Assembly (NCBI GenBank): GCA_964570665.1
Contig: CAZMZH010000002.1
Coordinates: 301,642-365,641, forward strand
Reading direction: 5' to 3'
Source: an uncultured Nitrospinota bacterium
Lineage (GTDB): Bacteria > Nitrospinota > Nitrospinia > Nitrospinales > JAJDAT01
DNA: 64,000 nucleotides
Shown here: in pieces, positions 13,792 to 36,083 of the stretch
Position numbering within the stretch: the stretch's first letter is position 1
Layout: every line of letters begins with the position of its first letter
Position numbers and translations under genes: made by a program
The notes under the pieces: generated by a model
Told to the model about the DNA's origin: nothing
What the model saw: only the letters and a program-made list of their open reading frames with translations
Database searches by the model: none

Positions 13792-13805
13792 AATAGGAGA
13801 TAACG

Positions 13806-18807: not shown

Positions 18808-20244
18808 CTAGCCTACTAAAGATTCTAGATGATTTTTTACTCGTGTTACCAATTGAGGATGACGGTCGCCCCCAAGCTTAATAAATCTTCGGTAGAAATA
18901 AATAGCCGAAGTCATATTACCCATTTCTTCGTAAAGCAAACCTAAGTTGTAATTTGTACCTGGATGGTCTGGATCGATTTTAAACGCTTTATTGTATACA
19001 GATTGTGCTTTTTCTAACCAGTTTTGTTTTTTATAGATTATACCTAAATTATTGTAGGTTTCGAGGTTATCGGGTTCTGCCTGAATTGCTTTTTTGTAAT
19101 TGGAAATGGCTCCCTTGATATTTCCTTTTTTATAATACACGACCCCAATATTGTTATATGCTTTAGAGAAATTGGGATCTATGTATAGGGCGCGCATAAA
19201 TTGCTCAAGCGAAGCGTCATACATCCTTAACTTTTTATAAATTAACCCGATATTGTTGTAGATTTCTGGGTTCCTAGGGTCTAATTCGGCGGCTTTTTGA
19301 TAGTTGATTAAAGCTTCTTGATGATCGCCCGCTTCTTGGTGGAAAGTTCCCATGTTGAAATAGTAATTTGAATCCTTAAATATTTCAGGAGTTGCAGTTT
19401 TAGGGAGTGGAGGGGATTCTAAGCTCTTGATGGGCATCATTTCATCGGGAGAAAAATTTGCCATTTCTAACTTTTCGCCATCATCTCCCGAAATTTGCTC
19501 TAAAAATTCCTTTGGACTTAAGATAACAACATGTTTAACTTTTCCGCTTGAAATTTGATCTCTAACCGAGTTTGACCTTGAGCTGGAGACTGTTCGATTT
19601 CTCCGATTTTTTTTTGCCGTTTTCTTAGGACCTCTTCTTATCCTAATTTCTAACGGAGGAGACTCGTTTACCGGAACAACTTTTGATCCTTCATTTTGTG
19701 GCTGGGGTATTTCATCCTCAGGTATTTCGGTTTCAATTTCTTCAATAGGAATCTGTGGTTCCTGAGCCATCGTTTGTGTTGAAGGTTCTAAGTTTTCGGT
19801 TTTGCTTTCAACGTTTTGCGAATTTGAAACAGGTTTGTTTGCTTGATCATTCGCAGGTTGTGGGGGAACGAAAGGTTCTAAAGTTTCAGTTGCTTTGGAA
19901 TTCGCCGGCGCCGTTGTAGGTTGTGGGGTTAATTTTGGTTCTTGTGGCTGTGCCGGAATTTTCGCTGTTTGGATGGGAGGTGACTTTTTCTTTTTTAAGC
20001 CCAGGTCTTCCAATATTGGTAATTCGGTAACTTTGGTGTTTTTATCAAAAGCTCCTGAGAAAACCAAATATGAAAATATAATGCCTAAAACTCCGATAGC
20101 TACCGCTTGTCCCAGAACTTTTTTGTCGGGAATTTTTCCAGAAATCTTGCTTTTTGAGCCTATTAAATTGAATTGTGGTACTTTTGGCCCTAGAGATTCT
20201 TTAGCTTTTAACGCTTTTTTAAGACTATCGGCTATTAAACTCAT
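18808..20244 (-). CDS. TPR protein with N-terminal TM anchor and Pro/Gln-rich linker (MshN-like position)
   Basis: TM (AVAIGVLGIIFSYLVFSGAF), a ~200-aa low-complexity P/Q/E-rich region, then 5-6 TPR repeats (AELDPRNPEIYNNIGLIYKK etc.). Follows the ExeA/MshM-like gene as in MSHA loci. Confidence 0.6.
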   Translation of the reverse strand: MSLIADSLKKALKAKESLGPKVPQFNLIGSKSKISGKIPDKKVLGQAVAIGVLGIIFSYLVFSGAFDKNTKVTELPILEDLGLKKKKSPPIQTAKIPAQPQEPKLTPQPTTAPANSKATETLEPFVPPQPANDQANKPVSNSQNVESKTENLEPSTQTMAQEPQIPIEEIETEIPEDEIPQPQNEGSKVVPVNESPPLEIRIRRGPKKTAKKNRRNRTVSSSRSNSVRDQISSGKVKHVVILSPKEFLEQISGDDGEKLEMANFSPDEMMPIKSLESPPLPKTATPEIFKDSNYYFNMGTFHQEAGDHQEALINYQKAAELDPRNPEIYNNIGLIYKKLRMYDASLEQFMRALYIDPNFSKAYNNIGVVYYKKGNIKGAISNYKKAIQAEPDNLETYNNLGIIYKKQNWLEKAQSVYNKAFKIDPDHPGTNYNLGLLYEEMGNMTSAIYFYRRFIKLGGDRHPQLVTRVKNHLESLVG

Positions 20245-20253
20245 GGCGGTCTC

Positions 20254-21708
20254 CTAACCGGATTTAGAAAGCGAAAGCAATAAAGGTTCCCGACCAGAAG
20301 TTTTTAAACGCTTTAGGCTGGATTTTGCTTCAGTTATTGCCTCAAATGGACCTACATAGACTACATGCCAGATTTGCCCTGACGAGTTGATTTTTTTCCA
20401 ATAGGTTTTAAATCCCTCAGCTTTCAATATCCTTGCATTGTCTTCGGCGGTTTTTTGATTGCTAAAAGCGTAAACCTGTATTCTATAATCCCCTTTACCT
20501 CTTGGTTCCATGGAATCGAGAGGCGAATTGTTTGAAGGAACCACGGGTTTTAAATTATCATTAGTTTGAATGAAATCTTTTTTGATTTCATCAATATTTT
20601 GAGATTTTTCGAGGTTTTGAGCGTTTACTTGAGAGGGAACGTTTTGTGATAAATCTTTTCTCGAACTTGCATTGCCATCGTTTGATTGGTTTGAAAAAAA
20701 GAAAATTAATCCCGCGACAAAAAATAGAATAGAAAACGCTAAACTTATATTTTCTTTAAATATATCCTTCCAAGAACGCTCGATTGAATCGCCGCCAGAA
20801 AGGCTTTTTATTCCTTGTTTTACATGACTGGTTTCAATGGAATCAGTTTGCGCATTAAAAGCCGAAAGAAGAGCTCGATCGCTTACCAGATTGATGAGCC
20901 TAGGATAACCTTTTGAATAGTTATAGATTGTTTTTAAGGCCGAAGAATTAAAACGAATGCGGGAAATGGTCCCAGCAATCATCACTCGATGATTTACATA
21001 ATTATAGGTTTCTTCTCGAGTCAATGGAGGAATTTGATAGCGGATAGAAATTCTTTGGTTCAATTGTTTTAATTCGGGACGATTCAATTTTTCCGTTAAT
21101 TCCAGTTGTCCGACGAAAATGATTTGTAGTAATTTTTCTTTTTCAGTTTCAAGGTTGGATAAAATCCGGACTTGTTCCATCACGTCCAAAGAAAGGTTTT
21201 GAGCCTCGTCGATTATCAAAACGGTCGATTTATTTTCTTCATGTTGTCTCAATAAAAAAGCGTTTAGAACGTCTATTAATTCTTTTTTAGAAAGACAATC
21301 TATTAAAGATTTTTCTTCAAGAGATTTTAAGTTATTCCCACCCACTGCGTTGGGCGCCATTTGCCCAGGGTCTCCAGGGATAACGTCGACAGGAGTGTGC
21401 GCTAAATACAAGCTAGGATCTATTCTTAGGTCGTATAGACAGGTGCGAAGTAAATCGATATCCGAAAGCATTGGATTTAAAATGAGAGCGACTTGAACGG
21501 TATTATCTAGACGGTCAAGTAAGCAACGGCACAAAGTCGTTTTACCGGTTCCTACATCGCCCACAATGGTCATGAAACCTTCTTTTTGTTTTATGCCATA
21601 TGACATATGATCCAAAGCTCCTTGATGTTGTTTACTTAGATATAGAAACTTTGGGTCTGGCGTTAAACTAAAGGGTTTTTCTTTTAAACCATAAAAGCTT
21701 TCGTACAT
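20254..21708 (-). CDS. ExeA/MshM-like AAA ATPase fused to a C-terminal SPOR domain
   Basis: Walker A GDVGTGKTT, Walker B VLIIDEAQNL, one TM (ISLAFSILFFVAGLIFFF). C-terminal SPOR-like block YRIQVYAFSNQKTAEDNARILKAEGFKTYW...WHVVYVGPFEAITEAKSSLKRLK. Confidence 0.8.
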   Translation of the reverse strand: MYESFYGLKEKPFSLTPDPKFLYLSKQHQGALDHMSYGIKQKEGFMTIVGDVGTGKTTLCRCLLDRLDNTVQVALILNPMLSDIDLLRTCLYDLRIDPSLYLAHTPVDVIPGDPGQMAPNAVGGNNLKSLEEKSLIDCLSKKELIDVLNAFLLRQHEENKSTVLIIDEAQNLSLDVMEQVRILSNLETEKEKLLQIIFVGQLELTEKLNRPELKQLNQRISIRYQIPPLTREETYNYVNHRVMIAGTISRIRFNSSALKTIYNYSKGYPRLINLVSDRALLSAFNAQTDSIETSHVKQGIKSLSGGDSIERSWKDIFKENISLAFSILFFVAGLIFFFSNQSNDGNASSRKDLSQNVPSQVNAQNLEKSQNIDEIKKDFIQTNDNLKPVVPSNNSPLDSMEPRGKGDYRIQVYAFSNQKTAEDNARILKAEGFKTYWKKINSSGQIWHVVYVGPFEAITEAKSSLKRLKTSGREPLLLSLSKSG

Positions 21709-21774
21709 AGGTAACCAAAAAAAGTGTAAAAAAAATATTAAAGGTCAAAAAGGCGTTTTGGGCCTTTTATAGAT

Positions 21775-23790
21775 TCAATTAAACTTGACTCCCATTTTTT
21801 TTGCATTCAGGGATTCGGCAAGGACTCGTTCGTCGATTTTTTTCCCGGCTAAAACTTCAGGAGTTAACAAAATTACTAATTCGGTTTTTTCGGTGGTTTC
21901 TAATTCTCGTTGAAATAAGCGTCCAAAAATTGGTAGATCTTCCAAAAGAGGCACCCCATTTGTTCCCGTAGTTTTCCGATCTTGCATCAAGCCACCGATA
22001 ATGATTGTTTGGCCATTTTGGGATAATACGACGTTGTTAGCTTCTCGAACATTTAGAATAGGAACGCGGTTAATTCCATCTGGAGAAACAGCCGTTCCAG
22101 TACGTTCTGAAATACTGGTGTTAATACTCATCATGACTTGTCCATTGATATTTATTTGTGGCAACACGTCTAAAATGATACCCACCGTTACGGTGGCAGG
22201 TTGAAAAGTTGTTGAAGATGCGGTTGTAGTTGTCGCTGGAGTTACTTCTGGAACGAAGAAAACATCTTCAGTGCCAACTTTAATTACGGCGCGTTGATTA
22301 TTTAGCGTTGCAATCTTGGGGCTTGAAAGCACGGATACAGAGCCTTGATTCTGTAATGCTTCCACAACTAAATTCAATTTAGCATTGCTAATTCCGTAAG
22401 TTAAGTTAGAAGTCCCTTGTATTAACGATGTAGCTGGATTAGAAGCTAATCCATCATGGATGATACTTATGGGAGTTACAGTACTCCAATCAATACCTAA
22501 CCGGTATTCATCGTTAAGATTGACTTCCAAAATTTGCGCCTGAATATAAACTTGACGTTGGGTCGAACCTTCGACGGCTTCTAAATATTCTGCGACTTTA
22601 AGTAATTGTTCGGGGAAGTCCTTTACTATTATTAATCCCGCTTGTTTATTGATAGAAACAAAACCATTTTCCGTTGATCCATCGGCCCCACCAGCATCTT
22701 CCTCAGCTTCGGCGTCGCCCGGAGCTGCGGCAGGGGTTGCGGCTCCGCCACCTAATGCCCCTAGAGCTGCGCTGAGAGGACTTCCGCCAGCGTCTGGGGA
22801 GGCTCCTGCAGCTGGAACTGCGGCAGATGCATCGGCGCCAGTTTCTCCAACTCCGTCAATACTAGCTCCTGGGCTAAGAAATTGTCTCAAACCGGTTGTG
22901 ATTTCGTTCCATAAATCGGTTTCTTCCGAAGAAAGTAAACTACTCGTTGTTCGAGCGTTTCCTGAACCGCTTGAACTTCCTGAAATTCCAGCTCCAGAAA
23001 TTTGAGAGCCACTGGAAGATTGAAGGTTACTGCTACCTTGCCGACGCGAAATAATATAATTCAAATGGAATATTCGAGTTTCCATTTTATCGGCAGTTAC
23101 CCGAATATAGTCTTTTTCAATTGTGTACTTTAGTTTTAATGGAGTTAATAAAGCTTCTAATACCTCAGTAAGCGGGACATCTTTTAAATCCATAGAAGCT
23201 TTTTGATTAATGGTTGGATCAATTAAAATATTTTGATCAATTTCCTTTGAGATCGAAAAAAGGATTGTCTTTATATCGACATCTTTTGCAGAGATACTAA
23301 ACTTTGGTCCTCTTTCTCTGAGTTTTCTCGTTTCGGTATCGCTTTGGGTTAAAAGAATTTCTAGGGGATCTTCTTCAGATTGCGATTTTTTATTTGATTT
23401 ATCTCCCCTAAAGCCTTTGCCAGTCATGGGTTCTAATTCGTCGTCTAAACTAGCTTCAGGGTATAAAAACGATTGCTGGGTTTCGACTAAACTTCTAAGA
23501 GGAGATCTCCGTTTTTTCTTTTTGCCGCTGCTTTTTTTATACGTTTTAGATACTTTGGTATTTTCAAAATCTTCATCCCAGTCTTCGTTAGATTCTGATT
23601 CTTCTGTTTTATCAGCTTTTACGGAAAGAGCGGCCTCTTGCGAGTTTGGCTGTTTTTCGTTCTCCTTGTAGGCAATTTTGTTTGATATACAGGCTGAAAG
23701 GAAAAAAATTACTAAGAAAAGTAATGAGTTTATTTTGTGAGTTGGATATTTTAATAACCCATTAATTTTACGAACAAGGCAGGAGGGCAT
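21775..23790 (-). CDS. Type II/IV secretin, lipoprotein form (MshL/PilQ-like)
   Basis: Lipobox LVIFFLSAC. Secretin C-domain (VSVLSSPKIATLNNQRAVIKVG...GVPLLEDLPIFGRLFQ...ELVILLTPEVL). Contains a ~110-aa Ser/Gly/Ala/Pro-rich insert. Confidence 0.85.
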   Translation of the reverse strand: MPSCLVRKINGLLKYPTHKINSLLFLVIFFLSACISNKIAYKENEKQPNSQEAALSVKADKTEESESNEDWDEDFENTKVSKTYKKSSGKKKKRRSPLRSLVETQQSFLYPEASLDDELEPMTGKGFRGDKSNKKSQSEEDPLEILLTQSDTETRKLRERGPKFSISAKDVDIKTILFSISKEIDQNILIDPTINQKASMDLKDVPLTEVLEALLTPLKLKYTIEKDYIRVTADKMETRIFHLNYIISRRQGSSNLQSSSGSQISGAGISGSSSGSGNARTTSSLLSSEETDLWNEITTGLRQFLSPGASIDGVGETGADASAAVPAAGASPDAGGSPLSAALGALGGGAATPAAAPGDAEAEEDAGGADGSTENGFVSINKQAGLIIVKDFPEQLLKVAEYLEAVEGSTQRQVYIQAQILEVNLNDEYRLGIDWSTVTPISIIHDGLASNPATSLIQGTSNLTYGISNAKLNLVVEALQNQGSVSVLSSPKIATLNNQRAVIKVGTEDVFFVPEVTPATTTTASSTTFQPATVTVGIILDVLPQININGQVMMSINTSISERTGTAVSPDGINRVPILNVREANNVVLSQNGQTIIIGGLMQDRKTTGTNGVPLLEDLPIFGRLFQRELETTEKTELVILLTPEVLAGKKIDERVLAESLNAKKMGVKFN

Positions 23791-24105
23791 TTATCGGTTT
23801 TATTTTAGGTTAATTAAATTTACATGTAATTACATAAAATTATACCAAATAATAATACATTAATTTTGTCAAATAGTCTAAAAAAAATTGATTTTATTGA
23901 AGTTATTAAGTTTTTGAGTGGATTTGGAGATTTGATGAAAAAGAGCTGTTTTAGGTGAAAATTACGGAAAGGGTGGTTATTGAATAATAGAAATATTTAT
24001 AAAGATGAAACAAGTAATTAATTTTTTTGAATTTATTGAATATTTTTTGATGTATCAGGGGATTAGAGAAGCCTGGCGGAGTTTATTTCAAGGGTTAGGA
24101 TATTT

Positions 24106-24618
24106 TCAATTTTGTTCTCTATTAACCTTAATTCTAAAAAAATTATTTTTTAAAGTTAACGTAATACGTTCCGCGTCGTTTTCAAGTATTACTCGATCAT
24201 TTGAAATTGCGACCACTTTTTTGCCAAAGGCAATATCTCCAACCTCAAAATTAAAGTTGTTAATAGTGGCGATTCGATTTTTTTTGGTAATTGTAACGGC
24301 CTGTAAACTGGGTTCCCCTTCAGGTTCTTCGGGTTTTGCTTCATTTACTAGTTCAGATTTTAAATAAACGCCCTCAGGTAATAAAAAAGGATTTCGTACT
24401 TCTTCCTCTTCAACTTGAATAGGGGGTTGTGGCGACATTGAAAAATTATCTTGAGGCTTGGTTTGTATGGAAAGTGGATTCTCTGCAGGAGGTGGGAGTT
24501 TGCCTGTTTTGGATAAAGGTGGTTGGTTATTTGTTTGTTGAGAAAACGATGGAGAGGAGAAAACCAAAAAAGAGATAAATAAAAAAACCAAAAATAAAAT
24601 TGAGCGTGATGAGATCAT
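24106..24618 (-). CDS. Small periplasmic pilus-assembly protein (PilP/MshK-like)
   Basis: Signal peptide (ILFLVFLFISFLVFSSPSFSQ), Pro-rich linker, C-terminal beta-rich block (ATINNFNFEVGDIAFGKKVVAISNDRVILEN). 4-nt overlap with the upstream gene. Call rests mainly on position. Confidence 0.45.
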   Translation of the reverse strand: MISSRSILFLVFLFISFLVFSSPSFSQQTNNQPPLSKTGKLPPPAENPLSIQTKPQDNFSMSPQPPIQVEEEEVRNPFLLPEGVYLKSELVNEAKPEEPEGEPSLQAVTITKKNRIATINNFNFEVGDIAFGKKVVAISNDRVILENDAERITLTLKNNFFRIKVNREQN

Positions 24619-25199
24619 ACAAGTGCGTATAATTTTAGGGTTAGCTTTGTTTGAATATTTGGTAAAAACTCATCTTTTCTTTTGACTTCTATTGTGTCTA
24701 AAAAAATAATTGCGGGAATTTTCTCTAAACCTTCAATAAAACTAGCAATAGCTTTATAGTCGCTGTGAATCACCATTGTCACAGTCACTTCTTTATACCT
24801 CAATTTTCCTTTTTTTATTTCTTCGTCGGTGGTTTTAGTCGATTTTAGTATCGCTTTACTTTTTTCGGCTTCTGCGTTCATGGCATTTAATATTTCGAGA
24901 TAACTTCCTCTCATTCTACTTTTGGCAAATTTTATATCTTTTTTAAGTTGAGCGTTTTTTTCATTTAATTTGGCGATCTTTTTTTCAATGTTTTTTACCT
25001 TAGCGCCCGCAGGAATTGTTTTCGCCAGGGAATTTAGCGCAATATTAGTTTTATTTATTTGACCGGTAATCTTTTTAAGTTTTTTCTCTCGGACTTCATA
25101 TTCCAGTTTAAAAAAACCTAGACCGACTATAACCAATGTCATTACAACCAATATGACTTTTTCCCTTGGGGTAAGTTTTTTTAAATCAAGTTTATTCAT
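24615..25199 (-). CDS. PilO/MshJ-like pilus assembly protein
   Basis: N-terminal TM (VILVVMTLVIVGLGFF), coiled coil, C-terminal globular part. 4-nt overlaps on both sides. Confidence 0.55.
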   Translation of the reverse strand: MNKLDLKKLTPREKVILVVMTLVIVGLGFFKLEYEVREKKLKKITGQINKTNIALNSLAKTIPAGAKVKNIEKKIAKLNEKNAQLKKDIKFAKSRMRGSYLEILNAMNAEAEKSKAILKSTKTTDEEIKKGKLRYKEVTVTMVIHSDYKAIASFIEGLEKIPAIIFLDTIEVKRKDEFLPNIQTKLTLKLYALV

Positions 25200-27031
25200 G
25201 AGGTGGATTTAGGTGTAGGTTTTTTTGTTGGTTTTCTAAGCGATAAATTCTCCGATTCTTTAGGGAAAGCGGAGATTTTAAACTTAAGACCTGGGCTAGT
25301 GTAAATTTCGGTTCCTTCAGCTTTTGTGTCTTCTAATTTAAAAATAGTAAATAAAGGAGATTCTTTAAGACTATTTAGAAAATTTGTGAGAGCTTGTAAT
25401 GAGGTTCTTTCGTTTCCAAATAAAATACCTTTAAGATAAATATCTCCCCTTTTGTTGTCCCTTTTATCCCTTTTGGCTTTGTAAACTAATTTTAGTAGAG
25501 ACGTTTCAGGGGGAAGTATTTTTGCCAATTCATTTAAAATTTCTTTAATATCGACAACTCTATAAACCCCTGGAAGTTTTCTAAGTTCTTTTTCTAAAGA
25601 TTCTCTTTTAGCGGTAATTTTTCCTAAAGTCGCCACGGGGTTTTGTGCCGCTTCGGCAGCGGCTTGCAAAGTTGCTAACTGTTGCTGCACTCTATCCAAT
25701 CTTTTTTCTGCGGCGGTTACTTTTCCTCTTATGCTAGAGCTAACTAACATCAATGCAATTATAAATATAGGAATTAAAGAATAGGGAGCCCATTTAACAA
25801 TGTCTTTTTTAACGGAATAGCGCAGTTCTTCAGGCAGTACGTTAATTCGACCAGATTTACCTAGGGCTAAACCGGCTGCTGTGGTTAAGCTGGGACCTAA
25901 AAGTTTAGTATTTTCTTGCGATACGCTAGCTAAAGGCTGAGTTGATTGGAATAAAGGGTTACATCTTTCAATCGGGGCTTCTAAATTTCCAGAAAGAAAC
26001 TGATAAAAGCCCTTTAGACTGCCAGAACCGCCAGAAAGTATGACGCGATGAACGGCGTTTTGTTTATATTGATTTTTGAAGTAATCGATAGACCGCATAA
26101 ATTCTTCCAGCTGTTTTTCTACTATAGGAAGAATGCGTTCGCGGATATCAAGAAGAGGGATACCTTCTTGTGTGATTTCTAATGAATCTTCCGCAGGCAA
26201 TCCATAAGTTTTTTTGATCGTTTCCGCTCGTACTGCGTCCACAGTAACCTTAGTTGCGTCTTCCAAGGTGTAGTCGCCTGCAATAGCGGCTGTAACGTTC
26301 TTTCCTCCATTTGGTATTTCGCGTGAAAATCTTAATTCGCCGTCTATAACAAAATAAACCCTAGTCCTCTCGGCTCCCATATCGATATAGCTAGTTACCG
26401 TGCCAGGTTCCAACTGATTAAAGGAACTATCGTAATGCCATAACGCCAGAGGAATAATTGTGACTCCCAATGGTTTTAAACCCGCTTTTTCGGCGACAGA
26501 AACTAAGAATGGAACAATATCCGCTCTTACGATAACGCTTAATAATTGATAGTAGGATATGCCATCATCCTTTGTGACTTCGCCGGTAATATGATAATCG
26601 GCAAAGGCGTCTTCGACAGAAAAAAGAACTTCTTCTTTGGCGTTCCAACGGGTAGCGTCTAAAATTTCCTCTTTGGGTATTTTAGGTAGTTCCAAATGAC
26701 GGATAACAACGTTGTGTCCGCTAACAGTCAGATACACTTGATCTGTATCAAACTTTTTTTCCTCAAACATTTGCTTGATCATCTGACCAAGAGCTTGCGC
26801 GCGGTCGGGAAGAGATAAAACGGAAGGAGGAATCTCTTTTATCGCGAAATTAGTAATGTCAAACCCTGAGGCATGAGAAACTACTTCGACTATTTTTATT
26901 GAGTGGAACCCTATATCTAATCCAACGCTCTTTCCAATGGAACCTTTACCAAGTCCCGGAATCTTAATAGATGGCGTTTTGAACGGAAGTTTAAAAGGAA
27001 GTTTTATGGGTGGAAGTTTTAGTTTGCTCAT
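25196..27031 (-). CDS. PilM-PilN fusion protein (MshI-like)
   Basis: Actin-like ATPase PilM region (VGLDIGFHSIKIVEV...YIDMGAERTRVYFV...ILSGGSGSLKG). Then a TM (WAPYSLIPIFIIALMLVSS) and a PilN-like coiled-coil/periplasmic region. Confidence 0.8.
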   Translation of the reverse strand: MSKLKLPPIKLPFKLPFKTPSIKIPGLGKGSIGKSVGLDIGFHSIKIVEVVSHASGFDITNFAIKEIPPSVLSLPDRAQALGQMIKQMFEEKKFDTDQVYLTVSGHNVVIRHLELPKIPKEEILDATRWNAKEEVLFSVEDAFADYHITGEVTKDDGISYYQLLSVIVRADIVPFLVSVAEKAGLKPLGVTIIPLALWHYDSSFNQLEPGTVTSYIDMGAERTRVYFVIDGELRFSREIPNGGKNVTAAIAGDYTLEDATKVTVDAVRAETIKKTYGLPAEDSLEITQEGIPLLDIRERILPIVEKQLEEFMRSIDYFKNQYKQNAVHRVILSGGSGSLKGFYQFLSGNLEAPIERCNPLFQSTQPLASVSQENTKLLGPSLTTAAGLALGKSGRINVLPEELRYSVKKDIVKWAPYSLIPIFIIALMLVSSSIRGKVTAAEKRLDRVQQQLATLQAAAEAAQNPVATLGKITAKRESLEKELRKLPGVYRVVDIKEILNELAKILPPETSLLKLVYKAKRDKRDNKRGDIYLKGILFGNERTSLQALTNFLNSLKESPLFTIFKLEDTKAEGTEIYTSPGLKFKISAFPKESENLSLRKPTKKPTPKSTS

Positions 27032-27169: not shown

Positions 27170-28381
27170 CTAACCTGAATAGTCTGGCGGCAGCAAAACT
27201 CCTCCAGCTCCGCCCTGGCATTCGTCAAACCCTGTGGCTTCTGAACCGGCTAAACTGCCGTAAGTAAGGTTGGAATTATTTTGTAGGGTGACGTTGTCTC
27301 CTAATATTGCGCCGTAGGAATCGTTATTATTTTCGATAGAAATATCATTATTTGCAATGATACCACCCACGTAAACTGTGGAGTTTTCAATGGTGGCATC
27401 TTTACCGGCTAATACCAATACGTCTTCGACTCCAATTAAAGGAGTTTGATTTAAACCATTAACTTGGTTGATTTTGGCGGTGTTTTGTAGCTTAAAATCG
27501 TCGTTATTATGTAAAGTCAATGTTCCAGCTTTGTTTGTGCTGTCATTAAGGTCAAAATCGGCATTTCCTTCAATGGTAATTTTACCCTCAACTTTAAAGA
27601 CAACTTTGGCGTTATTTCTAATCTTAATAGAACTTTGTTGTTTAACGTTTAAATCATTTTCAATTTCAATAGTTCTGTCGCTAGAAATGGTAAATGTATC
27701 TGATCCATCAATCGTAAAGTTACAGAATTGAAAGTGGTTCAATTCCCCTGAAGTTACATGAGTTGCCGTATCAAAATCTGGATAAGTGGCATTCGGGCAT
27801 CCAGCGCCATCAACAACCACTGTAGATACTAAAGGAAGAGTACAAGATACTATCCCGGAACTAGCGTCGGTCTCGGCATTGTTAAGTATATTAATACTTG
27901 TGCAAGCAGAAACGGAGTTGGTTGAAAAGGCACATCCGCCAGCAGTGGAAATCGTCTTAGAAATGATTCTTTCGCCCATATTATATGTTCCTATAGAAGT
28001 AGCTCTAACAGACCCGGCGCTTTTAGCTGAAAATGTAACCGTAAATGCCCCACCGGATATAGGAACTGGAGTTGATAGGTCTGGAGTGGTTGCCCATGTG
28101 GAGCAACTAGATCCGCCTTGATTACACCAACAAGCGGCATTGGAAGGGTCTTTAATTAAACAACCTTCTACATATCTGATACCGGATTCGGCAATAAAAA
28201 AAGCGTTTGTTGAAGTCATGGTTAAGGCGCTGCCGGCATGTTTATGTTTTGATTCGACCCAAAAATTTAAAGCGACCGTTCCTAATACAACAATGGTAAT
28301 CACCGCTGCCATTAAAGCTGCGATACCAGATTGCCCTTTTATATGGCGAAAAAAATATTTTTCAAAGAAGCTCGATATCAT
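27170..28381 (-). CDS. Large PilX-N-like pilus-associated protein with Cys-rich and beta-helix-like regions
   Basis: N-terminus GQSGIAALMAAVITIVVLGTVALNF lacks Glu5, as PilX/MshP-type proteins do. The C-terminal half has repetitive N/D/G-rich beta-helix-like segments. Confidence 0.5.
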   Translation of the reverse strand: MISSFFEKYFFRHIKGQSGIAALMAAVITIVVLGTVALNFWVESKHKHAGSALTMTSTNAFFIAESGIRYVEGCLIKDPSNAACWCNQGGSSCSTWATTPDLSTPVPISGGAFTVTFSAKSAGSVRATSIGTYNMGERIISKTISTAGGCAFSTNSVSACTSINILNNAETDASSGIVSCTLPLVSTVVVDGAGCPNATYPDFDTATHVTSGELNHFQFCNFTIDGSDTFTISSDRTIEIENDLNVKQQSSIKIRNNAKVVFKVEGKITIEGNADFDLNDSTNKAGTLTLHNNDDFKLQNTAKINQVNGLNQTPLIGVEDVLVLAGKDATIENSTVYVGGIIANNDISIENNNDSYGAILGDNVTLQNNSNLTYGSLAGSEATGFDECQGGAGGVLLPPDYSG

Positions 28382-28890
28382 AAATATCCTCTAGGCCTCA
28401 CAGCGGCTTGAATCGAATAACTTTCTCCAGTGGATTTGGAAAGAGAAAGCGTAAAGCGAAATAAGTTAGCTTCTACAACCTCTACGGTAAAACCGGAAAC
28501 GTTGGTAGCTATGTTTTCGGCAGCGGCTCCCGTTCTAACTAGGTTTGTAGAGCTAACCGTGTAGGAAACAGATCTGGGATTGGTTGTGTCTTGCAATAAA
28601 GCGCCACGATCAAAATAGATAGAGTTATAAGTTGCGCCAATAGTGCAAGCTCCTAATAATGCTCCGCAAGCAATAGCAGGGGTGCCTTTGGCAAATCGGA
28701 TTTCCCGAACAAGATACTCCATGCCTAATTTAGCTTCGTCTACCATATCTTTCTTTTGAGCGTGCATTTGGTTGAGGTTAACAATATCCAATATATACTT
28801 CATCGATATTGTCCCCACCACAGATGCTAAGACGATGCTTATGATTATTTCGATAAGCGTAAAGCCTTTTTTGTTTTTTATTAATTTCAT
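28378..28890 (-). CDS. Prepilin-type (class III signal) minor pilin/pseudopilin
   Basis: MKLIKNKKG|FTLIEIIISIVLASVVG: G-1, F+1, E+5 prepilin peptidase motif. Confidence 0.78.
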   Translation of the reverse strand: MKLIKNKKGFTLIEIIISIVLASVVGTISMKYILDIVNLNQMHAQKKDMVDEAKLGMEYLVREIRFAKGTPAIACGALLGACTIGATYNSIYFDRGALLQDTTNPRSVSYTVSSTNLVRTGAAAENIATNVSGFTVEVVEANLFRFTLSLSKSTGESYSIQAAVRPRGYL

Positions 28891-28899
28891 AATTTGAAA

Positions 28900-29322
28900 T
28901 TATTGCGTAAAAAGATTGACGAAACTTAGCGGTTCCATTTCAGCATGGTCAATGGTCAACGTTAATTTTTTTCCAAATCCGGCAGCGCCTAGCGCAGTAT
29001 CTAAATCTCCTGCGGCTACGTCAATTACGGAGCAGCTTAAGGTGTATGCGGGTATCTGAGAGTCGGCACCATTTAAACTAGAGCAATCTGTGTTTATGGA
29101 AGAAACCGTTTTATCAACTAAAGTTTCCATATGTTTTTGAGCTAGAAATGAAGCTTTGACTACAATTTCAGGGGATTGCGTAAACTTTAGACTGGTGAAT
29201 GGAACCATGATGGCCGGTACCGAAATGCCTATGAGGACAATAGACATGATAACTTCCACCAAAGTGAAACCCTTATTTTCAAGAAAAATCCATTTAGGAA
29301 AAAACTTCGCTAGCATATTCAT
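28900..29322 (-). CDS. Prepilin-type minor pilin/pseudopilin
   Basis: ...LENKG|FTLVEVIMSIVLIGISV prepilin motif with E+5. Confidence 0.75.
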   Translation of the reverse strand: MNMLAKFFPKWIFLENKGFTLVEVIMSIVLIGISVPAIMVPFTSLKFTQSPEIVVKASFLAQKHMETLVDKTVSSINTDCSSLNGADSQIPAYTLSCSVIDVAAGDLDTALGAAGFGKKLTLTIDHAEMEPLSFVNLFTQ

Positions 29323-29330
29323 AATTTTGT

Positions 29331-29810
29331 CTATGGCTCGGTTATCTCAACAATTCCAGTATAGGGCTTGACCGTAATTGTGTATGTCACGGTTCCCATG
29401 CCTAAATTAAGAGCCCAAGGAGTTGCGCCGATTTCTGGCTCTCCGTGTTTGTTGAAATAAAGCGAGTTGGTTGTTATGGAATTTACGGTAACCTCTGGAG
29501 CAAACTCTCTTTGTTCGGCTAAGATTCCATTAGTGTCGACTAAGTTGTAGGTCCATTTTGATCCAACTTGGCTAAAAATGAGCCCTGCCTTGTTATCTCC
29601 AGTCCCCAAATTTCTTGTCATTCCTACTTCTTGGACTAGGCGAATATCGGATTCTAAGGCCTGCGCAGAAAGCGTTGGGTTAATAGAATCTACTTTTAGA
29701 TTGGGTACGGCAACTGCGGCAATAATGCCAATCAATAAAATTACAATGATGATTTCCATCATTGTAAAGCCAGAGGATGATTTAATTTTTTTATTTTCCT
29801 GAATTCTCAT
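29331..29810 (-). CDS. Prepilin-type pilin, first gene of the operon (possible major pilin)
   Basis: ...KSSSG|FTMMEIIIVILLIGIIAAVAVPNL prepilin motif with E+5. Confidence 0.8.
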   Translation of the reverse strand: MRIQENKKIKSSSGFTMMEIIIVILLIGIIAAVAVPNLKVDSINPTLSAQALESDIRLVQEVGMTRNLGTGDNKAGLIFSQVGSKWTYNLVDTNGILAEQREFAPEVTVNSITTNSLYFNKHGEPEIGATPWALNLGMGTVTYTITVKPYTGIVEITEP

Positions 29811-29846: not shown

Positions 29847-29875
29847 ATTATAAGCTCATTGTCATAGGCTGTCAA
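29847..29875 (-). promoter_or_regulatory. Consensus sigma-70 promoter of the pilus operon
   Basis: The minus strand reads TTGACA (29875-29870), 17 nt, TATAAT (29852-29847), about 37 nt upstream of the pilin ATG at 29810. Confidence 0.6.
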
Positions 29876-30150
29876 ATAGTTGATATCATTAAATTTACCC
29901 TAGTTTCTGAAATGGGTTGAAAAACGCTAAGTTAGCCTACGAAAAAAAATAAATTTTTTTTTTATTTTCTTTACCCTAACTTTCAATATTTTAGAAGAAC
30001 TTATAAAAGGGCTTAATATTCAACAGTTTTGACATTAAAATATTATATACAGTTTTACAAACTTTAACTTCTATTTCATGGTTACTATACACCTAGCGCC
30101 AAAATTATCTTTCCAATTAGTGACTTTTTTATAGAAAGGCCGGGTTTTTC

Positions 30151-31701: not shown

Positions 31702-31804
31702 ACTTTTTTATATTTTTTTTATTGTAAGACCGTCAATCGGTAGGATGAAATTCTTTGAAAAACGGCATATTAATCCAAAACGACCCATAAAGTTTGATAA
31801 AAGG

Positions 31805-31833
31805 TTGTTTTTCAAAACACTTAGGGATAAATT
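31805..31833 (+). promoter_or_regulatory. Candidate sigma-70 promoter of paralogue P1
   Basis: TTGTTT-N17-TAAATT. The same element and flanks (TAAAAGGTTGTTTTT...TAAATTA) recur upstream of P2 at 33336-33364. Confidence 0.4.
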
Positions 31834-31866
31834 AGTAGTTAGGAAAAAAAATCTAATATTTAAACA

Positions 31867-33174
31867 GTGAAAAGGCCAATGAAAAATAAGCCCGTAAAAA
31901 ATAAAAAGGTAAAATTTATTTTTAAGGATTTCCCATCTTTAAAGGCTTTGGGTATTACCTTATTTTTTGTTTTGGCTTTATTGTCGCCTAATCCGATAAA
32001 TAGTAATATTGTCGACAATGCGTATGCGGGTGGGGGGAGTCCTTCTCCATCGCCTTCTCCATCGCCATCACCGTCGCCTTCACCATCACCGTCGCCATCA
32101 CCGTCGCCTTCTCCATCACCGTCGCCTTCTCCATCGCCATCTGTTGATGAATGCGATTTAGGTACTGATTGGAATTATGATTGGGATAATTGTTCTCGGT
32201 CTATAGATTGCGACTCGATTCATACTTTGAAGATGTATTACCATCCAAATTTTACCGCTACCAATTTCCCATCGCCGAATATAACGGTAACAGGGAAAGA
32301 TGCGGGTGATAGTTGTACCTTTGACGTTAATTTTACCAAGGTATCAGGCGGTGATAATTGTGGGTACGCGTTATATACAGCAAGCGGCGGTACACAATTA
32401 AAAGTAAATACCAATGCCATTAATGGGGCGACGAATTGTGAATTAAGAATTACTGTTGCGGCGCCGAGGACCACTAATTTGGGCATTAGCTCGGAAACTC
32501 GTTGGACCGGCTTTGGTATTTGGGCGAATAAGGCTTGGGCTTCTGTTGAAGGCATGAAAGGTTTTGTAAGCGCTCATTCAACGACAGGAGATTTACGAGC
32601 AGACGTAACATCGGGTAATGTTTTTATGACATCCGTAACTGGGAATTTATGGGCAATAGGCTTGACCCAGAAGGCTGAACTAAGAACTTGCTCTGATATT
32701 AGAGCTGAGTATTGTTCAATTCCAAGCGGATCTAATTATTTAAGAGTTGATACGAAGCGAGCGGGTAATGGGCTTCGGAATAGTGGTACCACATGTTCTG
32801 TAGACGATTCAGATAAAGATAAAGACAAGGACAAAGATAAAGACAAGGACAAAGATAAAGACAGTGACAAAGATAAAGACAGTGACAAAGATAAAGACAG
32901 TGACAAAGATAAAGACAGTGACAAAGATAAAGACAAGGACAAAGATAAAGATAAGGATGAAGACGAAGATGAAGATCCTTATGGAAATATTGACGTTCAA
33001 TATATTCCTACGACTACCTTCAAAGAAGAGTTGGCTGTTGATTTAACCAAATATCGCAACGATATTGGAAATTGCCCAGGATGTAGTTATAAAATAGACG
33101 CAGATAGTTTGGGGCATGTTTATATAATTAATAAAAATGTTCCTTCCGGAACAACGAACATTTGCGCTCATTAA
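31867..33174 (+). CDS. Secreted Cys-containing protein P1 with (Ser-Pro)17 and Asp-Lys tracts; family unknown
   Basis: Signal peptide ...NAYA|GGG. Paralogous to 33534-34631 and 34651-35640. The GTG at 31867 or the ATG at 31879 (preceded by AAAGG) could be the start. Confidence 0.8.
   Translation: MKRPMKNKPVKNKKVKFIFKDFPSLKALGITLFFVLALLSPNPINSNIVDNAYAGGGSPSPSPSPSPSPSPSPSPSPSPSPSPSPSPSPSPSVDECDLGTDWNYDWDNCSRSIDCDSIHTLKMYYHPNFTATNFPSPNITVTGKDAGDSCTFDVNFTKVSGGDNCGYALYTASGGTQLKVNTNAINGATNCELRITVAAPRTTNLGISSETRWTGFGIWANKAWASVEGMKGFVSAHSTTGDLRADVTSGNVFMTSVTGNLWAIGLTQKAELRTCSDIRAEYCSIPSGSNYLRVDTKRAGNGLRNSGTTCSVDDSDKDKDKDKDKDKDKDKDSDKDKDSDKDKDSDKDKDSDKDKDKDKDKDKDEDEDEDPYGNIDVQYIPTTTFKEELAVDLTKYRNDIGNCPGCSYKIDADSLGHVYIINKNVPSGTTNICAH
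32038..32142 (+). repeat. (Ser-Pro)17-Ser coding microsatellite-like tract
   Basis: 105 nt of tcN-ccN dipeptide codons with mixed synonymous codons (tct/tcg/tca, cca/cct/ccg). Confidence 0.95.
32803..32976 (+). repeat. Asp-Lys / Asp-Ser / Asp-Glu coding tandem repeat in P1
   Basis: ~58 codons (hand count). The core is seven consecutive 18-nt units at 32824-32949: 2x gacaaggacaaagataaa, 4x gacagtgacaaagataaa (perfect, 32860-32931), 1x gacaaggacaaagataaa. Confidence 0.95.
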
Positions 33175-33335
33175 TTCATTCCTTTAAATGACCAAGTAGA
33201 TAGTAAGTAAAAGTTCGATTTTGCTTTCCCCTTCCCTTTTTTTAAAAAGTTGATTAAGCCACGCGGTTTTTTCCAGTAAACCTCCTGTGAAAAAGATTGA
33301 AAATCCCCAAGTTAAGGTAAATATTTTGTAAAAGG

Positions 33336-33364
33336 TTGTTTTTGAATGTGTTGAGGCGTAAATT
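33336..33364 (+). promoter_or_regulatory. Candidate sigma-70 promoter of paralogue P2 (duplicate of the P1 element)
   Basis: TTGTTT-N17-TAAATT within the conserved TAAAAGGTTGTTTTT...TAAATTA context, about 170 nt upstream of the P2 start. Confidence 0.35.
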
Positions 33365-33533
33365 ATAGTGAACTCTGATTTCTATTTAATCGATGCGGGT
33401 CAAACTTTTTTCCAAATAAAATAGGAATTAGTGGGAGGATGGCTTTCTGTTTTTTTAGTTTTAAAGAAATAGTAAATGTATTGCCATAGAGCGTTTGAAT
33501 TAATCTTAAATTTTAAAATAATTTGGGTACTAG

Positions 33534-34631
33534 GTGATGAATGAAATTTCAAAGTATATTAAAACCCTTTTTCGAATTTTTTCATTTTGTGTCTTGGCAA
33601 TATTATTTTTCTTTGCGCCATCGCCTTTGCCATTAATCGGCCAAGCGCAAGCCGCCGATTGTGATGAAGGATCATGGGATTATGATTGGAGTAGTTGTAC
33701 CCTATCGGTTGATTGCGATTCAGTAAATAGGTTAAGAGTTGTTTATAATGCAACATTTACTTCTACTAATTTTCCTGCGCCTAATATTTATGTTTTAGGA
33801 AAAGATACTCCAAGCGAGTGTACGTTTGATTTTAATTTGACCAAAGTATCGGGCGGAGACGACTGTGCTTATAAAATTTATACAGATAAAAGTGGCGAAA
33901 GACTGAATTTAAATACCAGGCGTCGAAATGGGGAGACCAATTGCGAAATTAGGGCTAATATTACGGCTCCCAGAACCATGAATATAAATAATATTACTGC
34001 CAATAAAGCTTGGGCATCCGTTGAAGGAATGACAGGCCAAGTAATAGCAAAATCCACGATAGGCGATCTTCGCGCTGACGTTACGTCTGACAAGGTAGTT
34101 TTATTATCCGAAACCGGTAATCTATGGGCTTCTGGACTAAAAAAAGTAGCTACCTTAAGGACTTGTTCAGATATTAGAGCGTTTTATTGTGTAATACCTA
34201 CCACAAATACAACGTTGACAACAGAAACAAAGAGGTCCGGAAAAAAGCTTGCTTGTGTGGTGGATGACTCTGACAAAGACAAGGATAAAGACAAAGATAA
34301 AGACAAAGATAAAGACAAAGACAAGGATAAAGACAAAGACAAGGATAAAGACAAAGACAAAGACAAGGACAAGGACAAAGACAAGGACAAGGATAAAGAC
34401 AAAGATGAAGACGAGGATGAGGAAGATGAAGACAGTCACGGAAATATAGACGTCCAATTTCTTCCGACAACTGGGTTCAAAGAAATATTGGATGTAGACT
34501 TAACCAAATATCGAAATGATATGGGTAATTGTCCAACTTGTAGGTTTAAATATAAACCAATCAGTTTGGGTCATGTGTTCGTTATTGAGAAAAATGTTCC
34601 TGCTGGAACCACTAACGATTGTCCATACTAA
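33534..34631 (+). CDS. Secreted Cys-containing protein P2 with a long (Asp-Lys)22 tract; family unknown
   Basis: Signal peptide ...GQAQA|ADC. Collinear with P1 (CD.G.W.YDW, DCDS, TNFP.PNI, TKVSGGD.C, NKAWASVEGM, GDLRADVTS, TGNLWA, LRTCSDIRA, GNIDVQ, VDLTKYRND.GNCP.C, GTTN.C). Confidence 0.8.
   Translation: MMNEISKYIKTLFRIFSFCVLAILFFFAPSPLPLIGQAQAADCDEGSWDYDWSSCTLSVDCDSVNRLRVVYNATFTSTNFPAPNIYVLGKDTPSECTFDFNLTKVSGGDDCAYKIYTDKSGERLNLNTRRRNGETNCEIRANITAPRTMNINNITANKAWASVEGMTGQVIAKSTIGDLRADVTSDKVVLLSETGNLWASGLKKVATLRTCSDIRAFYCVIPTTNTTLTTETKRSGKKLACVVDDSDKDKDKDKDKDKDKDKDKDKDKDKDKDKDKDKDKDKDKDKDKDKDEDEDEEDEDSHGNIDVQFLPTTGFKEILDVDLTKYRNDMGNCPTCRFKYKPISLGHVFVIEKNVPAGTTNDCPY
34263..34433 (+). repeat. 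(Asp-Lys)22 + Asp/Glu coding repeat in P2
   Basis: 57 codons (hand count) of gaY-aaR hexamers in irregular order, followed by DEDEDEEDED. Confidence 0.95.
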
Positions 34632-34650
34632 GTTTTTCTAAGATCGAATT

Positions 34651-35640
34651 ATGAAACCAACTTCAATAAAAAAAAATGGTTTGAGGATTTTTATTGGAGT
34701 TTTAGCGGCCTGTCAGATATACGCAACGGCATTTGCTTCGGAAGGGGAGGAAAGATGTCAAGTAACCTCTAAGTTGCAAAGTAATATAAAGGCTTGTTCT
34801 AAATTAGTTTCTTTACCTTCCGTTGATAAACTGTATGTTCTATACGGTAAAAACTCTATCGCTACAGACAGATCATCCTCTAATATTTTGATCAAAGCTT
34901 GGGAAGAAAGGGAGTGTGACAACTCTGACAAGGGTAAAGATAAAGATGTCGAAAATAATCGAATAGATTGTAATACCGATTTTCATGTTTCTATGAAAAA
35001 AATAAGCGGGGGCGATCAATGCGGTTTTATTATCGATAATCCAAAAAAGCAATCCGATCAATTAAAAATTGTTATAAAGCGAAAAAGTCGTTCCAAAATT
35101 GACAATTGCGAAATGCAAATGATTATTCGAGCTCCGGCGTTTACACAATTAATTAGAAATGTGTATAACAAGGCTGAAGCGCAAATTGTCGGGATGAAGG
35201 CATTAATTGGAGCGACTTCTACTTCGGGAGATATTCATGCGGAAGTTACTTCTCCCCAAGTAAACTTGACTTCTAAAACTGGGAGTCTATGGGCATACGG
35301 GTTGACTAAGCGAGGCAAAATAATGACGCGGGGAGGAGATGTTGCCGTCCAATATTGTAAAACTCCTGAAAATCAAACGGGAGAGCTTCAATTGTTAACG
35401 TTAACTTCGAAAGATGGAAGCGTGCCCGCCGGTTATGTGAGTTTATTTTTACCTCAAGAAATGGAATATTGGATGCATAAGTCTCTCAAAAAACAATTAA
35501 AGAAAGCGAACCACCTCAAAACACAAGTTCCCGAGTGTGGATATGCGAATTGTAAGTCTTTTAAAATGCGAGGAGACGTTCGAAATTATATGTATGTTTC
35601 AGCGCTTCCTCAAAAAGCCGCTAATGTTTGTCGATTTTGA
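34651..35640 (+). CDS. Secreted paralogue P3 (divergent, lacks the long Asp-Lys tract)
   Basis: Signal peptide ...ATAFA|SEG. Shares KISGGDQCGF, DNCEMQMIIRAP, NKAEAQIVGM, SGDIHAEVTS, TGSLWAYGL and a C-terminal Cys pair. Only a short DKGKDKD at a different position. Starts 19 nt after the P2 stop. Confidence 0.75.
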   Translation: MKPTSIKKNGLRIFIGVLAACQIYATAFASEGEERCQVTSKLQSNIKACSKLVSLPSVDKLYVLYGKNSIATDRSSSNILIKAWEERECDNSDKGKDKDVENNRIDCNTDFHVSMKKISGGDQCGFIIDNPKKQSDQLKIVIKRKSRSKIDNCEMQMIIRAPAFTQLIRNVYNKAEAQIVGMKALIGATSTSGDIHAEVTSPQVNLTSKTGSLWAYGLTKRGKIMTRGGDVAVQYCKTPENQTGELQLLTLTSKDGSVPAGYVSLFLPQEMEYWMHKSLKKQLKKANHLKTQVPECGYANCKSFKMRGDVRNYMYVSALPQKAANVCRF

Positions 35641-36083
35641 ATATTTGATTATTTTTATTCCACCAACGCCTCACACCTCTTAGTATTTTTAACTATACCC
35701 TCCGTCCCGCCTTCATTATGTACCCACTTTGCTTGTAGTCAATATCATTGACTTAACGAAATGGCTCGTCAATTATAGCGATTGGGTTTCTTCTACGGTT
35801 CCAAATTTTTTTTGGTTTGTTAGTTTAAATTGAGTAGATATAAGCGATTTAAGCGCAGTCAAAAAAAACTGGTCGCATAACAGATTATTGTGGTATTTGA
35901 ATTCGAAAGTTACCAATGAGTTTGTCGAGTTATTTTTTATCGATCTATCTATTTTAGATTAATTAAATCGTTTTTAATAAATTTAATTTATTACTTTTTT
36001 ATGTCGCTCCGATTATAATTATTTTCAAATTTTTAAATTAAAAATTTAAGCAATTGAAACCGCAATAAAATATTGAATTATCG

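Follow-up and report, generated by a model that had tools for sequence, protein, structure and literature searches.

A 64,000-nucleotide stretch of DNA from an uncultured marine Nitrospinota bacterium (contig CAZMZH010000002.1; hereafter, the window) contains three consecutive open reading frames (ORFs) on the + strand, here called P1, P2, and P3. P1 (31867..33174) encodes 435 amino acids (aa), P2 (33534..34631) encodes 365 aa, and P3 (34651..35640) encodes 329 aa, and their products end in CAH, CPY, and CRF, respectively. An earlier note on this DNA had described them as collinear paralogues from an unrecognized family of secreted, Cys-rich proteins, and the ORF list agrees with the coordinates that it gave. 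The JGI gene call places the start of P1 at the ATG at 31879, which yields 431 aa, and P2 probably starts at the ATG at 33537 (364 aa). The stop codon of P2 and the start of P3 are 19 nucleotides (nt) apart. End-to-end alignment of P1 and P2 shows 60% identity (E-value of 1e-101), and P2 and P3 share 33% identity across 209 residues (E-value of 1e-23). P3 itself was also recovered as protein P0002 in the exhaustive profile search described below (JGI 3300009481, contig Ga0114932_10000001).

The ratio of nonsynonymous to synonymous substitution rates (dN/dS) between P1-P3 and their orthologues in three other genomes is 0.04 to 0.12, a rough estimate because dS is near saturation; for comparison, the neighboring genes for Lnt and GuaA give 0.12 to 0.14 and 0.04. 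Because the values are similar to those of Lnt and GuaA, we consider the genes to be real. P1-P3 are tandem paralogues and, judged by these substitution rates, are under purifying selection. There is hardly any chance that the ORFs are artifacts of low-complexity repeats or decaying pseudogenes. Repeat DNA does yield spurious ORFs in other frames and on the opposite strand, and the related locus L004 keeps only a fragment of P2, but this explanation is already refuted by the dN/dS values over three genomes, by the retention of cysteines and motifs at 23 to 33% identity, and by a confident AlphaFold2 (AF2) model. Spurious ORFs that arise from the Asp-Lys (DK) repeats of P1 and P2 lie at 32736-32942, 32809-33000, and 34167-34470, all on the - strand; they include poly-(Leu-Ser) and Phe/Val/Ile-rich ones and are not genes.

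From the N to the C terminus, P1 is composed of a signal-like N terminus, a GGG(SP)17 tail, a Cys-rich N-half, beta-helix rungs of the Toastrack type, a DK loop, and the last rungs. P2 has a P1-like architecture minus the Ser-Pro (SP) tail, and in P3, which has no long DK loop, the Toastrack-like domain is complete. The (Ser-Pro)17 tract of P1, reported earlier and confirmed here (32038..32139, aa 58 to 91), would stand at the N terminus of the mature protein as a tail; in orthologues it numbers 10 or 18 SP units, versus 17 in P1. The charged tract of P1 (32803..32976, aa 313 to 370) comprises 58 residues, with 20 DK pairs, 5 serines that occur in DSDKDK units, and an acidic DEDEDED tail. That of P2 (34263..34436, aa 244 to 301) likewise comprises 58 residues, with 22 strictly alternating DK pairs followed by DEDEDEEDEDS. 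The lengths of 58 and 57 counted earlier are therefore correct for P1 and have to be changed to 58 for P2, and the strict alternation claimed for both tracts applies to P2 and not to P1 with its five serines; both do end in Asp/Glu as stated. The net charge is -13 in P1 and -12 in P2.

The tracts mix GAT with GAC and AAA with AAG codons, and that of P1 has an 18-bp unit. The window has no DK-coding DNA outside P1 and P2, which account for all 27 pattern matches (0 expected). P3 lacks a long tract and has a short insertion, DKGKDKD. DK tracts in orthologues are 27 to 52 residues long (27 to 58 with P1 and P2 included). Because both DK and SP lengths vary among orthologues, the near-equal length of the P1 and P2 tracts, to which the earlier note had drawn attention, carries no conservation and does not point to a conserved ruler.

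The tracts also differ in position and composition. In most of those family proteins whose domain is split into two halves, the tract lies directly behind the signal-like N terminus, whereas it lies between the N-half and the C-half in P0003 and at the C terminus of the N-half protein in P0012. P0016, P0035, and L005 have an acidic, variable sequence in the loop equivalent to the DK loop of P1 and P2, and members of the family carry DK, SP, SQK, poly-D, or His-rich tracts. Because border position, composition, and length all vary, we infer that the tracts are generic spacers or bristles and not a specific binding site or ruler. According to the Das-Pappu classification (PMC7503639), a strong polyampholyte with strictly mixed charges should behave as an expanded, well-hydrated, coil-like chain, and by analogy the DK tract would do so here as well. 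Long His-rich tracts (HTHTHSHG..HSHWH, HxHxH) stand beside the DK tract in L005 (3087-3935), P0016, and P0017, and their sequence suggests metal binding in those species. A prepilin-type minor pilin at locus L008 (8394-9095) has a C-terminal DK/KD tail of ~60 residues, so DK tracts are not exclusive to the Toastrack-like family.

Scans of P1-P3 with Pfam and NCBIfam returned matches to the low-complexity tracts only and left the folded parts unmatched; the matches to CDC45, RNA polymerase subunits, ClfB/Sdr, and ZrgA were rejected as compositional. The DK tracts resemble the Ser-Asp (SD) repeats of the staphylococcal Clf/Sdr microbial surface components recognizing adhesive matrix molecules (MSCRAMMs) in that they are long dipeptide repeats with an 18-bp unit of mixed synonymous codons and in the polymorphism of repeat length between strains, and the NCBIfam matches pair the DK tract with the SD regions of ClfB, SdrC, and SdrD. 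However, this match is confined to the DK tract and reaches 15 to 35 bits against cutoffs of 999 to 2500. The repeat here is a near-neutral DK polyampholyte and not SD, it forms an internal loop or an N-terminal tail instead of a wall-spanning stalk, and P1-P3 lack LPXTG at their C termini and come from a diderm host.

Signal-like N termini, cysteines, and the Toastrack fold

The signal-like N terminus of P1 (31867..32028, aa 1 to 54) has an n-region with a charge of +10, the h-region LGITLFFVLALL, and a candidate cleavage site between AYA and GGG. N termini were judged by reading charge, hydrophobicity, and small-x-small sites. All 25 N termini from the family (25/25) have a basic n-region, a 12-residue hydrophobic core with a mean Kyte-Doolittle value of 2.1 to 3.3, and a small-x-small site just before the hydrophilic tract. 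The signal peptides that the earlier note had seen in all three proteins are supported by positive charge, a 12-residue hydrophobic core, and a small-x-small site in each, and its view that the proteins are exported gains support from the 25 N termini and from even numbers of mature cysteines that covary in pairs. We predict Sec-type export and disulfide folding outside the cytoplasm, with cleavage likely at the predicted small-x-small site. Pfam found no N_methyl match in P1-P3, and their N termini show the Sec order of n-, h-, and c-regions, not that of a prepilin; one relative, P0024, has a PilX_N-type N terminus. A lipoprotein reading of P3 (VLAAC) was set aside, as the orthologue has FFAVC and the AFA/ASA site followed by Ser is conserved.

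Mature P1, P2, and P3 contain 12, 12, and 10 cysteines, respectively. Across the family, Cys columns are present or missing in pairs: the CxxC pair is kept or missing as a unit, and P1 and P2 have a pair of their own on either side of the DK loop base. Both the "YC" cysteine and the terminal one are universal in the family, and all members that contain a C-half end in Cys-x-Tyr/Phe/His. Two N-half cysteines (alignment columns 229 and 258) are also universal, and relatives in PF13349 have two conserved cysteines in the corresponding N-half region (C67 and C93 of P0020). The number of cysteines is odd in the core, and the C-terminal module has three, so if all are paired, at least one disulfide would bridge the DK loop. 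A short, conserved motif, CH.PPGN(P/K)...C....AV.AH..H(A/G)D, precedes the N-half in P0006, P0012, and P0024 (L008, 10001-11461).

The segment behind the DK tract, regarded earlier as a separate C-terminal module, follows directly behind the rungs in P3, P0003, P0004, and all C-half proteins. We compared it with a C-half profile built from proteins in which the rungs and the C-terminal module are contiguous. The C-terminal module of P1 and P2 corresponds to positions ~90 to 153 of this profile and the part before the tract to positions 2 to ~120; the last beta-helix rungs of P1 (32977..33171) match positions 90 to 151. Because the module is contiguous with the rungs in P3 and in relatives, the DK tract of P1 and P2 is most likely an internal loop inserted between the rungs of a single beta-helix domain. 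P3, for which no such module had been listed, contains a diverged copy of it with CxxxxC instead of CxxC, and several of the sequence blocks listed as common to the three proteins are confined to P1 and P2, while about half are kept in P3 in a diverged form. The idea of a rigid stalk or ruler that presents a disulfide-rich head does not fit, as what looks like a C-terminal module makes up the final rungs of one and the same beta-helix and as the DK tracts of relatives sit at differing module borders and have no conserved length. From the earlier description, paralogy, the SP tract, and the two DK tracts stand and several details do not; from its interpretation, the export and the likeness to DUF4097 are supported and the stalk is not.

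That likeness had been described as faint, and it was correct: profile search and hhalign, together with weaker Foldseek matches, identify the family as a divergent branch of the Toastrack/DUF4097 superfamily. It was called unrecognized with some justification, given that Pfam and NCBIfam are blind to its folded parts, yet it is homologous to PF13349 and not an orphan. A word-indexed search of 5.8 billion clusters with P2 minus its DK tract returned one metagenome fragment, and the impression of an orphan family that this gave was corrected by an exhaustive HMMER search with a four-sequence profile (A1), which found 54 proteins at an E-value of ≤1e-3 among 1.84 billion cluster representatives. 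The stronger matches have their cysteines, DK tracts, and C terminus in common and make up a subfamily, and 19 of the 20 weaker ones (alignment A4) belong to PF13349, "Toastrack DUF4097." The PF13349 proteins were retrieved by the family profile at library-wide E-values of 1e-9 to 1e-3. An hhalign comparison of the family (24 sequences) with the PF13349 matches gave a probability of 99.6% and an E-value of 2e-24 over 214 columns, which start at the "DCDS" block, take in the GDLRADVTS/TGNLWA rungs, and reach the end of the C-terminal CxxC module.

A sequence search of the PDB with the profile found nothing. An AF2 model of P2 from the four-sequence alignment was discarded (predicted local distance difference test score [pLDDT], 42), and the model of P3 from the 24-sequence alignment consists mostly of strands and is confident (pLDDT, 85.2; predicted template modeling score, 0.85). 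In a Foldseek search of the PDB with the P3 model, the first 12 places are taken by 4qrk, 3lyc, 3jx8, 3ljy, and 4opw, albeit with weak scores; these are the "putative adhesin" structures from structural genomics. The Toastrack superfamily comprises PF13349 (DUF4097), DUF2154, and DUF2807, with LiaG, YvlB, and VraT as examples. Two of the five structures, 4QRK and 4OPW, are named as Toastrack exemplars by Ravi et al. (PMC11237479).

We therefore assign the family with high confidence to a very divergent branch of the Toastrack (DUF4097) beta-helix. Homology extends across the whole folded region, the all-beta model of P3 has Toastrack-type crystal structures as its best PDB matches, and the two cysteines of the N-terminal region are common to secreted PF13349 relatives of ~240 aa. 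The branch differs from other Toastrack proteins in that P1-P3 escape the PF13349 model and in its 10 to 12 cysteines and signal-like N termini, whereas the literature predicts an intracellular location (PMC11237479). Further differences are the long DK, SP, and His-rich low-complexity insertions, the natural fission of the domain into separate genes for its N-half and C-half, and a conserved neighborhood formed by a pilus operon instead of PspC, LiaF, or two-component genes. The coupling to PspC, LiaI-LiaF-TM, or two-component genes that is described, along with an intracellular location, for many Toastrack members (PMC11237479) is not found here among the annotated neighbors; it is a contextual trait outside the definition of the fold.

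A type IV filament operon next to the family

The neighbors of P1-P3, which were not visible to the earlier reader, form a pilus-like cluster. Three prepilin-type minor pilin or pseudopilin genes with the N_methyl motif (28378..29810, - strand; 159, 140, and 170 aa) are transcribed divergently from the side of P1-P3. Next to them on the same strand are the gene for a large, PilX-like minor pilin of 403 aa (27170..28381) with a PilX_N-type N-terminal helix and DUF7305, and the other genes of an operon for a type IV filament resembling the mannose-sensitive hemagglutinin (MSHA) pilus (18808..27031). These comprise genes for PilM_2 (611 aa), a PilO-like protein, a 170-aa ORF, a secretin (Secretin_N_2 plus STN), an MshM/ExeA-like protein with AAA_22 and SPOR domains, and an MshN-like TPR protein.

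A scan of one genome per species identified five related loci, all in Nitrospinota metagenome-assembled genomes (MAGs; Nitrospinales, Nitrospinia, and Nitrospinaceae). All organism-labeled members of the family come from Nitrospinota MAGs, and the others are from unlabeled assemblies and metagenomes. Close relatives share a syntenic order with pseudopilin genes on the - strand and Lnt, P1, P2, an optional P3, GuaA, and GuaB on the + strand. P1, P2, and P3 are all present in the window and in JAYOZP01, and L002 has P1 and P2. L004 has P1 together with a 98-aa remnant of the C-terminal rungs of P2 (11577-11873), a case of gene decay. In JAYOZP01, L003 ends in P1 ~20 codons past the DK tract and L001 opens with the end of a P1-like ORF, probably owing to an assembly break around the repeat.

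At all of the roughly one dozen loci whose flanks are long enough, the family is located immediately beside the minor-pilin end of a pilus operon and in divergent orientation. This survey covered loci with 23 to 88% identity, namely, the window, L001/L003, L002, L004, L005, L006/L007 (P0004), L009/L010 (P0003), L011 (P0014), L012/L013 (P0009), the P0017 contig, and L015/L016 (P0013); L014, with an upstream region too short to judge, was left out. The family adjoins pilus genes in L008 as well. The neighboring families across these loci are N_methyl/GspH, DUF7305, PilM_2, and secretin. Members in the distant loci share only 23 to 33% identity with P3, and no Lnt gene lies between their pilin and family genes. 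By contrast, the control proteins P0020 and P0026, which are generic Toastrack relatives, have unrelated neighbors with no pilus genes nearby. L015/L016 lie on one scaffold (ENA ERZ23499116, scaffold_430), where an entire block with minor pilins, a 539-aa protein, PilM_2, N-half and C-half genes, and DUF2231 occurs twice in tandem, ~7.1 kb apart, which is either a real duplication or an assembly artifact.

In some relatives the family domain is fused to a PilX-like or DUF7305 pilus protein. P0004 (752 aa) consists of a DUF7305 region followed by the full family core, and this region is homologous to residues 190 to 384 of the 403-aa protein in the window (E-value of 4e-20). P0024 (486 aa) has a PilX_N-type N terminus, then a DK tract, and then the N-half; its PilX_N match is below the Pfam cutoff (E-value of 4e-4), and BLASTP aligns it to the 403-aa window protein with an E-value of 4e-4. 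The P0024 gene lies within the pilin operon of L008, which also encodes the minor pilin with the 60-residue DK tail, and the gene for the C-half (L008, 11463-12119) starts two bases past its stop codon. Division of the domain into adjacent N-half and C-half genes is seen in many genomes, for example at L005 (2244-3041 and 3087-3935).

Proposed role and alternative explanations

We propose, with a probability of roughly 55%, that P1-P3 are exported accessory subunits from the Toastrack branch that dock at the tip of the MSHA-like type IV filament and are displayed as binding modules. According to this model, they would be made with an N-terminal Sec-type signal and would fold oxidatively outside the cytoplasm, where one of the predicted disulfides would connect the invariant C-terminal cysteine to the "YC" strand. 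Functionally coupled to the adjacent filament machine, a non-pilin subunit of this kind would dock on the tip complex of minor pilins, particularly on the PilX-like DUF7305 protein (27170-28381), be carried through the secretin, and serve as an adhesin-like binding module, with the three paralogues offering alternative surfaces. The DK tract would be a flexible, strongly hydrated, well-mixed polyampholyte loop between beta-helix rungs, and the mature proteins would begin with flexible tails, made of SP in P1 and of DK, SQK, poly-D, or His-rich sequence in relatives; all these tracts would act as spacers or "bristles." We favor a tip subunit because in some species PilX-like proteins contain the domain within the same polypeptide chain, because Toastrack provides two large sheet surfaces (PMC11237479), and because non-pilin tip proteins are known to ride minor pilins.

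Two groups of such proteins invite comparison. PilC, PilY1, and MshQ, which are tip proteins of type IVa and MSHA pili, attach to minor pilins via C-terminal beta-strand addition (PMC13533445). Like them, the family has a Sec signal and not a prepilin signal and is encoded with minor pilins (it adjoins N_methyl/GspH-type genes), and its strictly conserved C-terminal Cys-x-Tyr/Phe/His-COOH could serve docking; by this analogy, a part for the invariant C terminus in docking is suggestive. The family differs in having no beta-propeller (there is no Pfam or NCBIfam match, and the fold is a beta-helix) and no sequence similarity, in its size of about 300 aa versus 1000 or more, and in being transcribed divergently instead of downstream of a PilK homologue. 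TcpF, for its part, hooks onto the minor pilin TcpB with its flexible N terminus (PMC9565799). TcpF and CofJ, which type IVb pili secrete by way of the tip minor pilin, resemble the family in being Sec-exported, encoded with pilus genes, and equipped with a flexible N-terminal segment in the mature protein. However, their fold is unrelated, the tails in the family are variable low-complexity repeats and not a specific signal of 10 to 15 residues, and some members are fused covalently to a pilin-like protein.

Several observations weigh against our proposal. The annotated ORFs, which cover part of the window, include no extension ATPase, platform protein, or major pilin, so the filament could be either a pilus or a secretion pseudopilus. 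The candidate cleavage site lies 12 to 20 residues past the hydrophobic core, which is unusually far, and the N terminus could for this reason stay as a membrane anchor. The Pfam model PF13349 does not match P1, P2, or P3 at an E-value of ≤1, the Foldseek scores are marginal (best E-value of 1.3e-3, ranging to 0.1; TM-scores of 0.33 to 0.42), and Toastrack is regarded as an intracellular platform beneath the membrane (PMC11237479). Finally, the conserved neighborhood could in part be inherited synteny, as the loci are mostly from related Nitrospinota or unlabeled; synteny as the sole explanation is disfavored because of the fusions and because the neighborhood persists at 23 to 30% identity.

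The main rival, which the neighborhood and the fusions would equally fit, is a cargo of a type II-secretion-like filament that hooks its tail to the minor-pilin tip and is then released like TcpF or CofJ. The minor-pilin set resembles GspH/I/J/K, including a GspH Pfam match in relatives, most members have flexible tails as mature N termini, and the flexible N terminus of TcpF that is bound to TcpB provides a precedent (PMC9565799). We nevertheless consider a cargo doubtful: the tails are of low complexity and diverse composition, unlike a specific recognition peptide, and the fusion of the N-half to a PilX-like pilin in P0024 implies retention in the filament in at least some species. The long stretch between the hydrophobic core and the candidate cleavage site, and the low-complexity tract that directly follows the N-terminal segment in most members, could instead belong to a periplasmic or membrane-tethered scaffold with a retained anchor and a DK or SP tether, acting in pilus assembly or regulation or in the sensing of envelope stress. 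Such a scaffold would resemble the platform that Toastrack is proposed to form in Lia/Psp systems; Toastrack domains are usually C-terminal to transmembrane segments and are proposed to be protein-docking platforms (PMC11237479). It is an improbable solution, as nearly all members have the small-x-small site just before the tract, the DK tract lies inside P1 and P2 and away from the membrane segment, and PspC, LiaF, two-component, and helix-turn-helix genes are absent among the listed genes of related loci and the annotated ORFs around the cluster in the window. Moreover, the fusion to the PilX-like/DUF7305 head region puts the domain on the filament side.

The alternative favored by the earlier note is a stand-alone surface protein that has no link to a pilus and uses its tracts as a stalk or ruler or binds cations or minerals. 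The tract net charge of -10 to -13 and the acidic tails would suit it, as would the HxH tracts beside DK in L005 (3087-3935), P0016, and P0017 and a weak NCBIfam match to ZrgA, which covers low-complexity sequence only. But the DK tract of P1 and P2 splits one domain and is not a connector between an anchor and a head, its length is not conserved, and neither sequence inspection nor Pfam or NCBIfam revealed a cell-surface anchor, an LPXTG motif, or a beta-barrel in P1-P3. The pilus neighborhood and the fusions would be left unexplained, and we regard this alternative as very unlikely.

A bolder idea, which we put forward as a speculation that is unlikely to be correct, is that the family is a new tip module of type IV filaments built as a split beta-helix and completed in trans. 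In some species, an N-half that is part of, or fused to, the PilX-like pilin would be joined on the filament by a separately exported C-half that completes the Toastrack fold. In P1 and P2, the last rungs, tethered by the 58-residue loop, could also dock in trans on a neighboring subunit or on a pilin-borne domain. If this is true, docking in trans would chain subunits or provide interchangeable tip heads. The DK tails on accessory proteins and a minor pilin would then be a system-wide feature, needed to pass the secretin or to make the tip nonsticky and hydrated in seawater.

Flanking features and significance

A promoter-like motif precedes P1 (31797..31839, + strand; AAAAGGTTGTTTTT..N..TAAATTA.TAGT), and a second copy lies about 165 to 205 nt before P2 (33328..33372, + strand). 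The motif consists of an invariant AAAAGGTTGTTTTT with TAAATTA.TAGT ~17 nt further on and is conserved in four genomes (the window, L001, L002, and L004). Behind the second copy is a conserved leader of ~170 nt, GAACTCTGATTTCTATTTAAT..., and an Rfam scan of 29700-36200 detected no riboswitch or small RNA in the leaders. The gene between the pilin operon and P1 (30151..31701, + strand) encodes a protein like apolipoprotein N-acyltransferase (Lnt). It is probably a bystander because it is syntenic in close relatives but missing at this position in more distant loci, and a functional tie to it was rejected on the same grounds. Directly past P3, in a segment with 29.5% GC, is a gene for a 744-aa PMT_2-like (GT-C) glycosyltransferase (36084-38318). 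A PMT_2 gene also adjoins a pilin gene in L008 (139-1838), and the protein could O-glycosylate the SP tract or pilins; a functional tie is unsupported by synteny, as the gene is not present in L001, L002, and L004. Elsewhere in the window, an unusually long class II ribonucleotide reductase of 1199 aa (43815-47414), with a TSCPD domain and a barrel that is matched in two stretches, may contain an insertion, and a FliJ-like gene (16976-17413) among the + strand ORFs at 6238-18006 may be part of a flagellar cluster upstream of the pilus operon.

The fold family is already known, and P1-P3 are in this respect not categorically new. What appears to be new is an exported, Cys-rich Toastrack branch that standard models miss, its fixed association with minor pilins of type IV filaments, including fusion and natural fission, and DK polyampholyte tracts as a feature that marks its members. 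A full-text literature search that joined DUF4097 with pilus terms yielded nothing relevant, and the genomic context suggests a previously undescribed pilus accessory protein.

To our knowledge, no biochemical function has been established for the very widespread Toastrack/DUF4097 domain. In the main comparative study it is taken to be an intracellular signaling platform (PMC11237479). Our analysis gives it a new and directly testable context, as an exported, putatively disulfide-stapled protein tied to the minor pilins of type IV filaments. The versions that are split or interrupted by DK tracts provide material on how a beta-helix tolerates fission and long polyampholyte insertions, and they may also inform how non-pilin proteins attach to filament tips. 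Nitrospinota are major marine nitrite oxidizers, and the family offers a candidate tip or cargo protein for their uncharacterized pilus-like systems.

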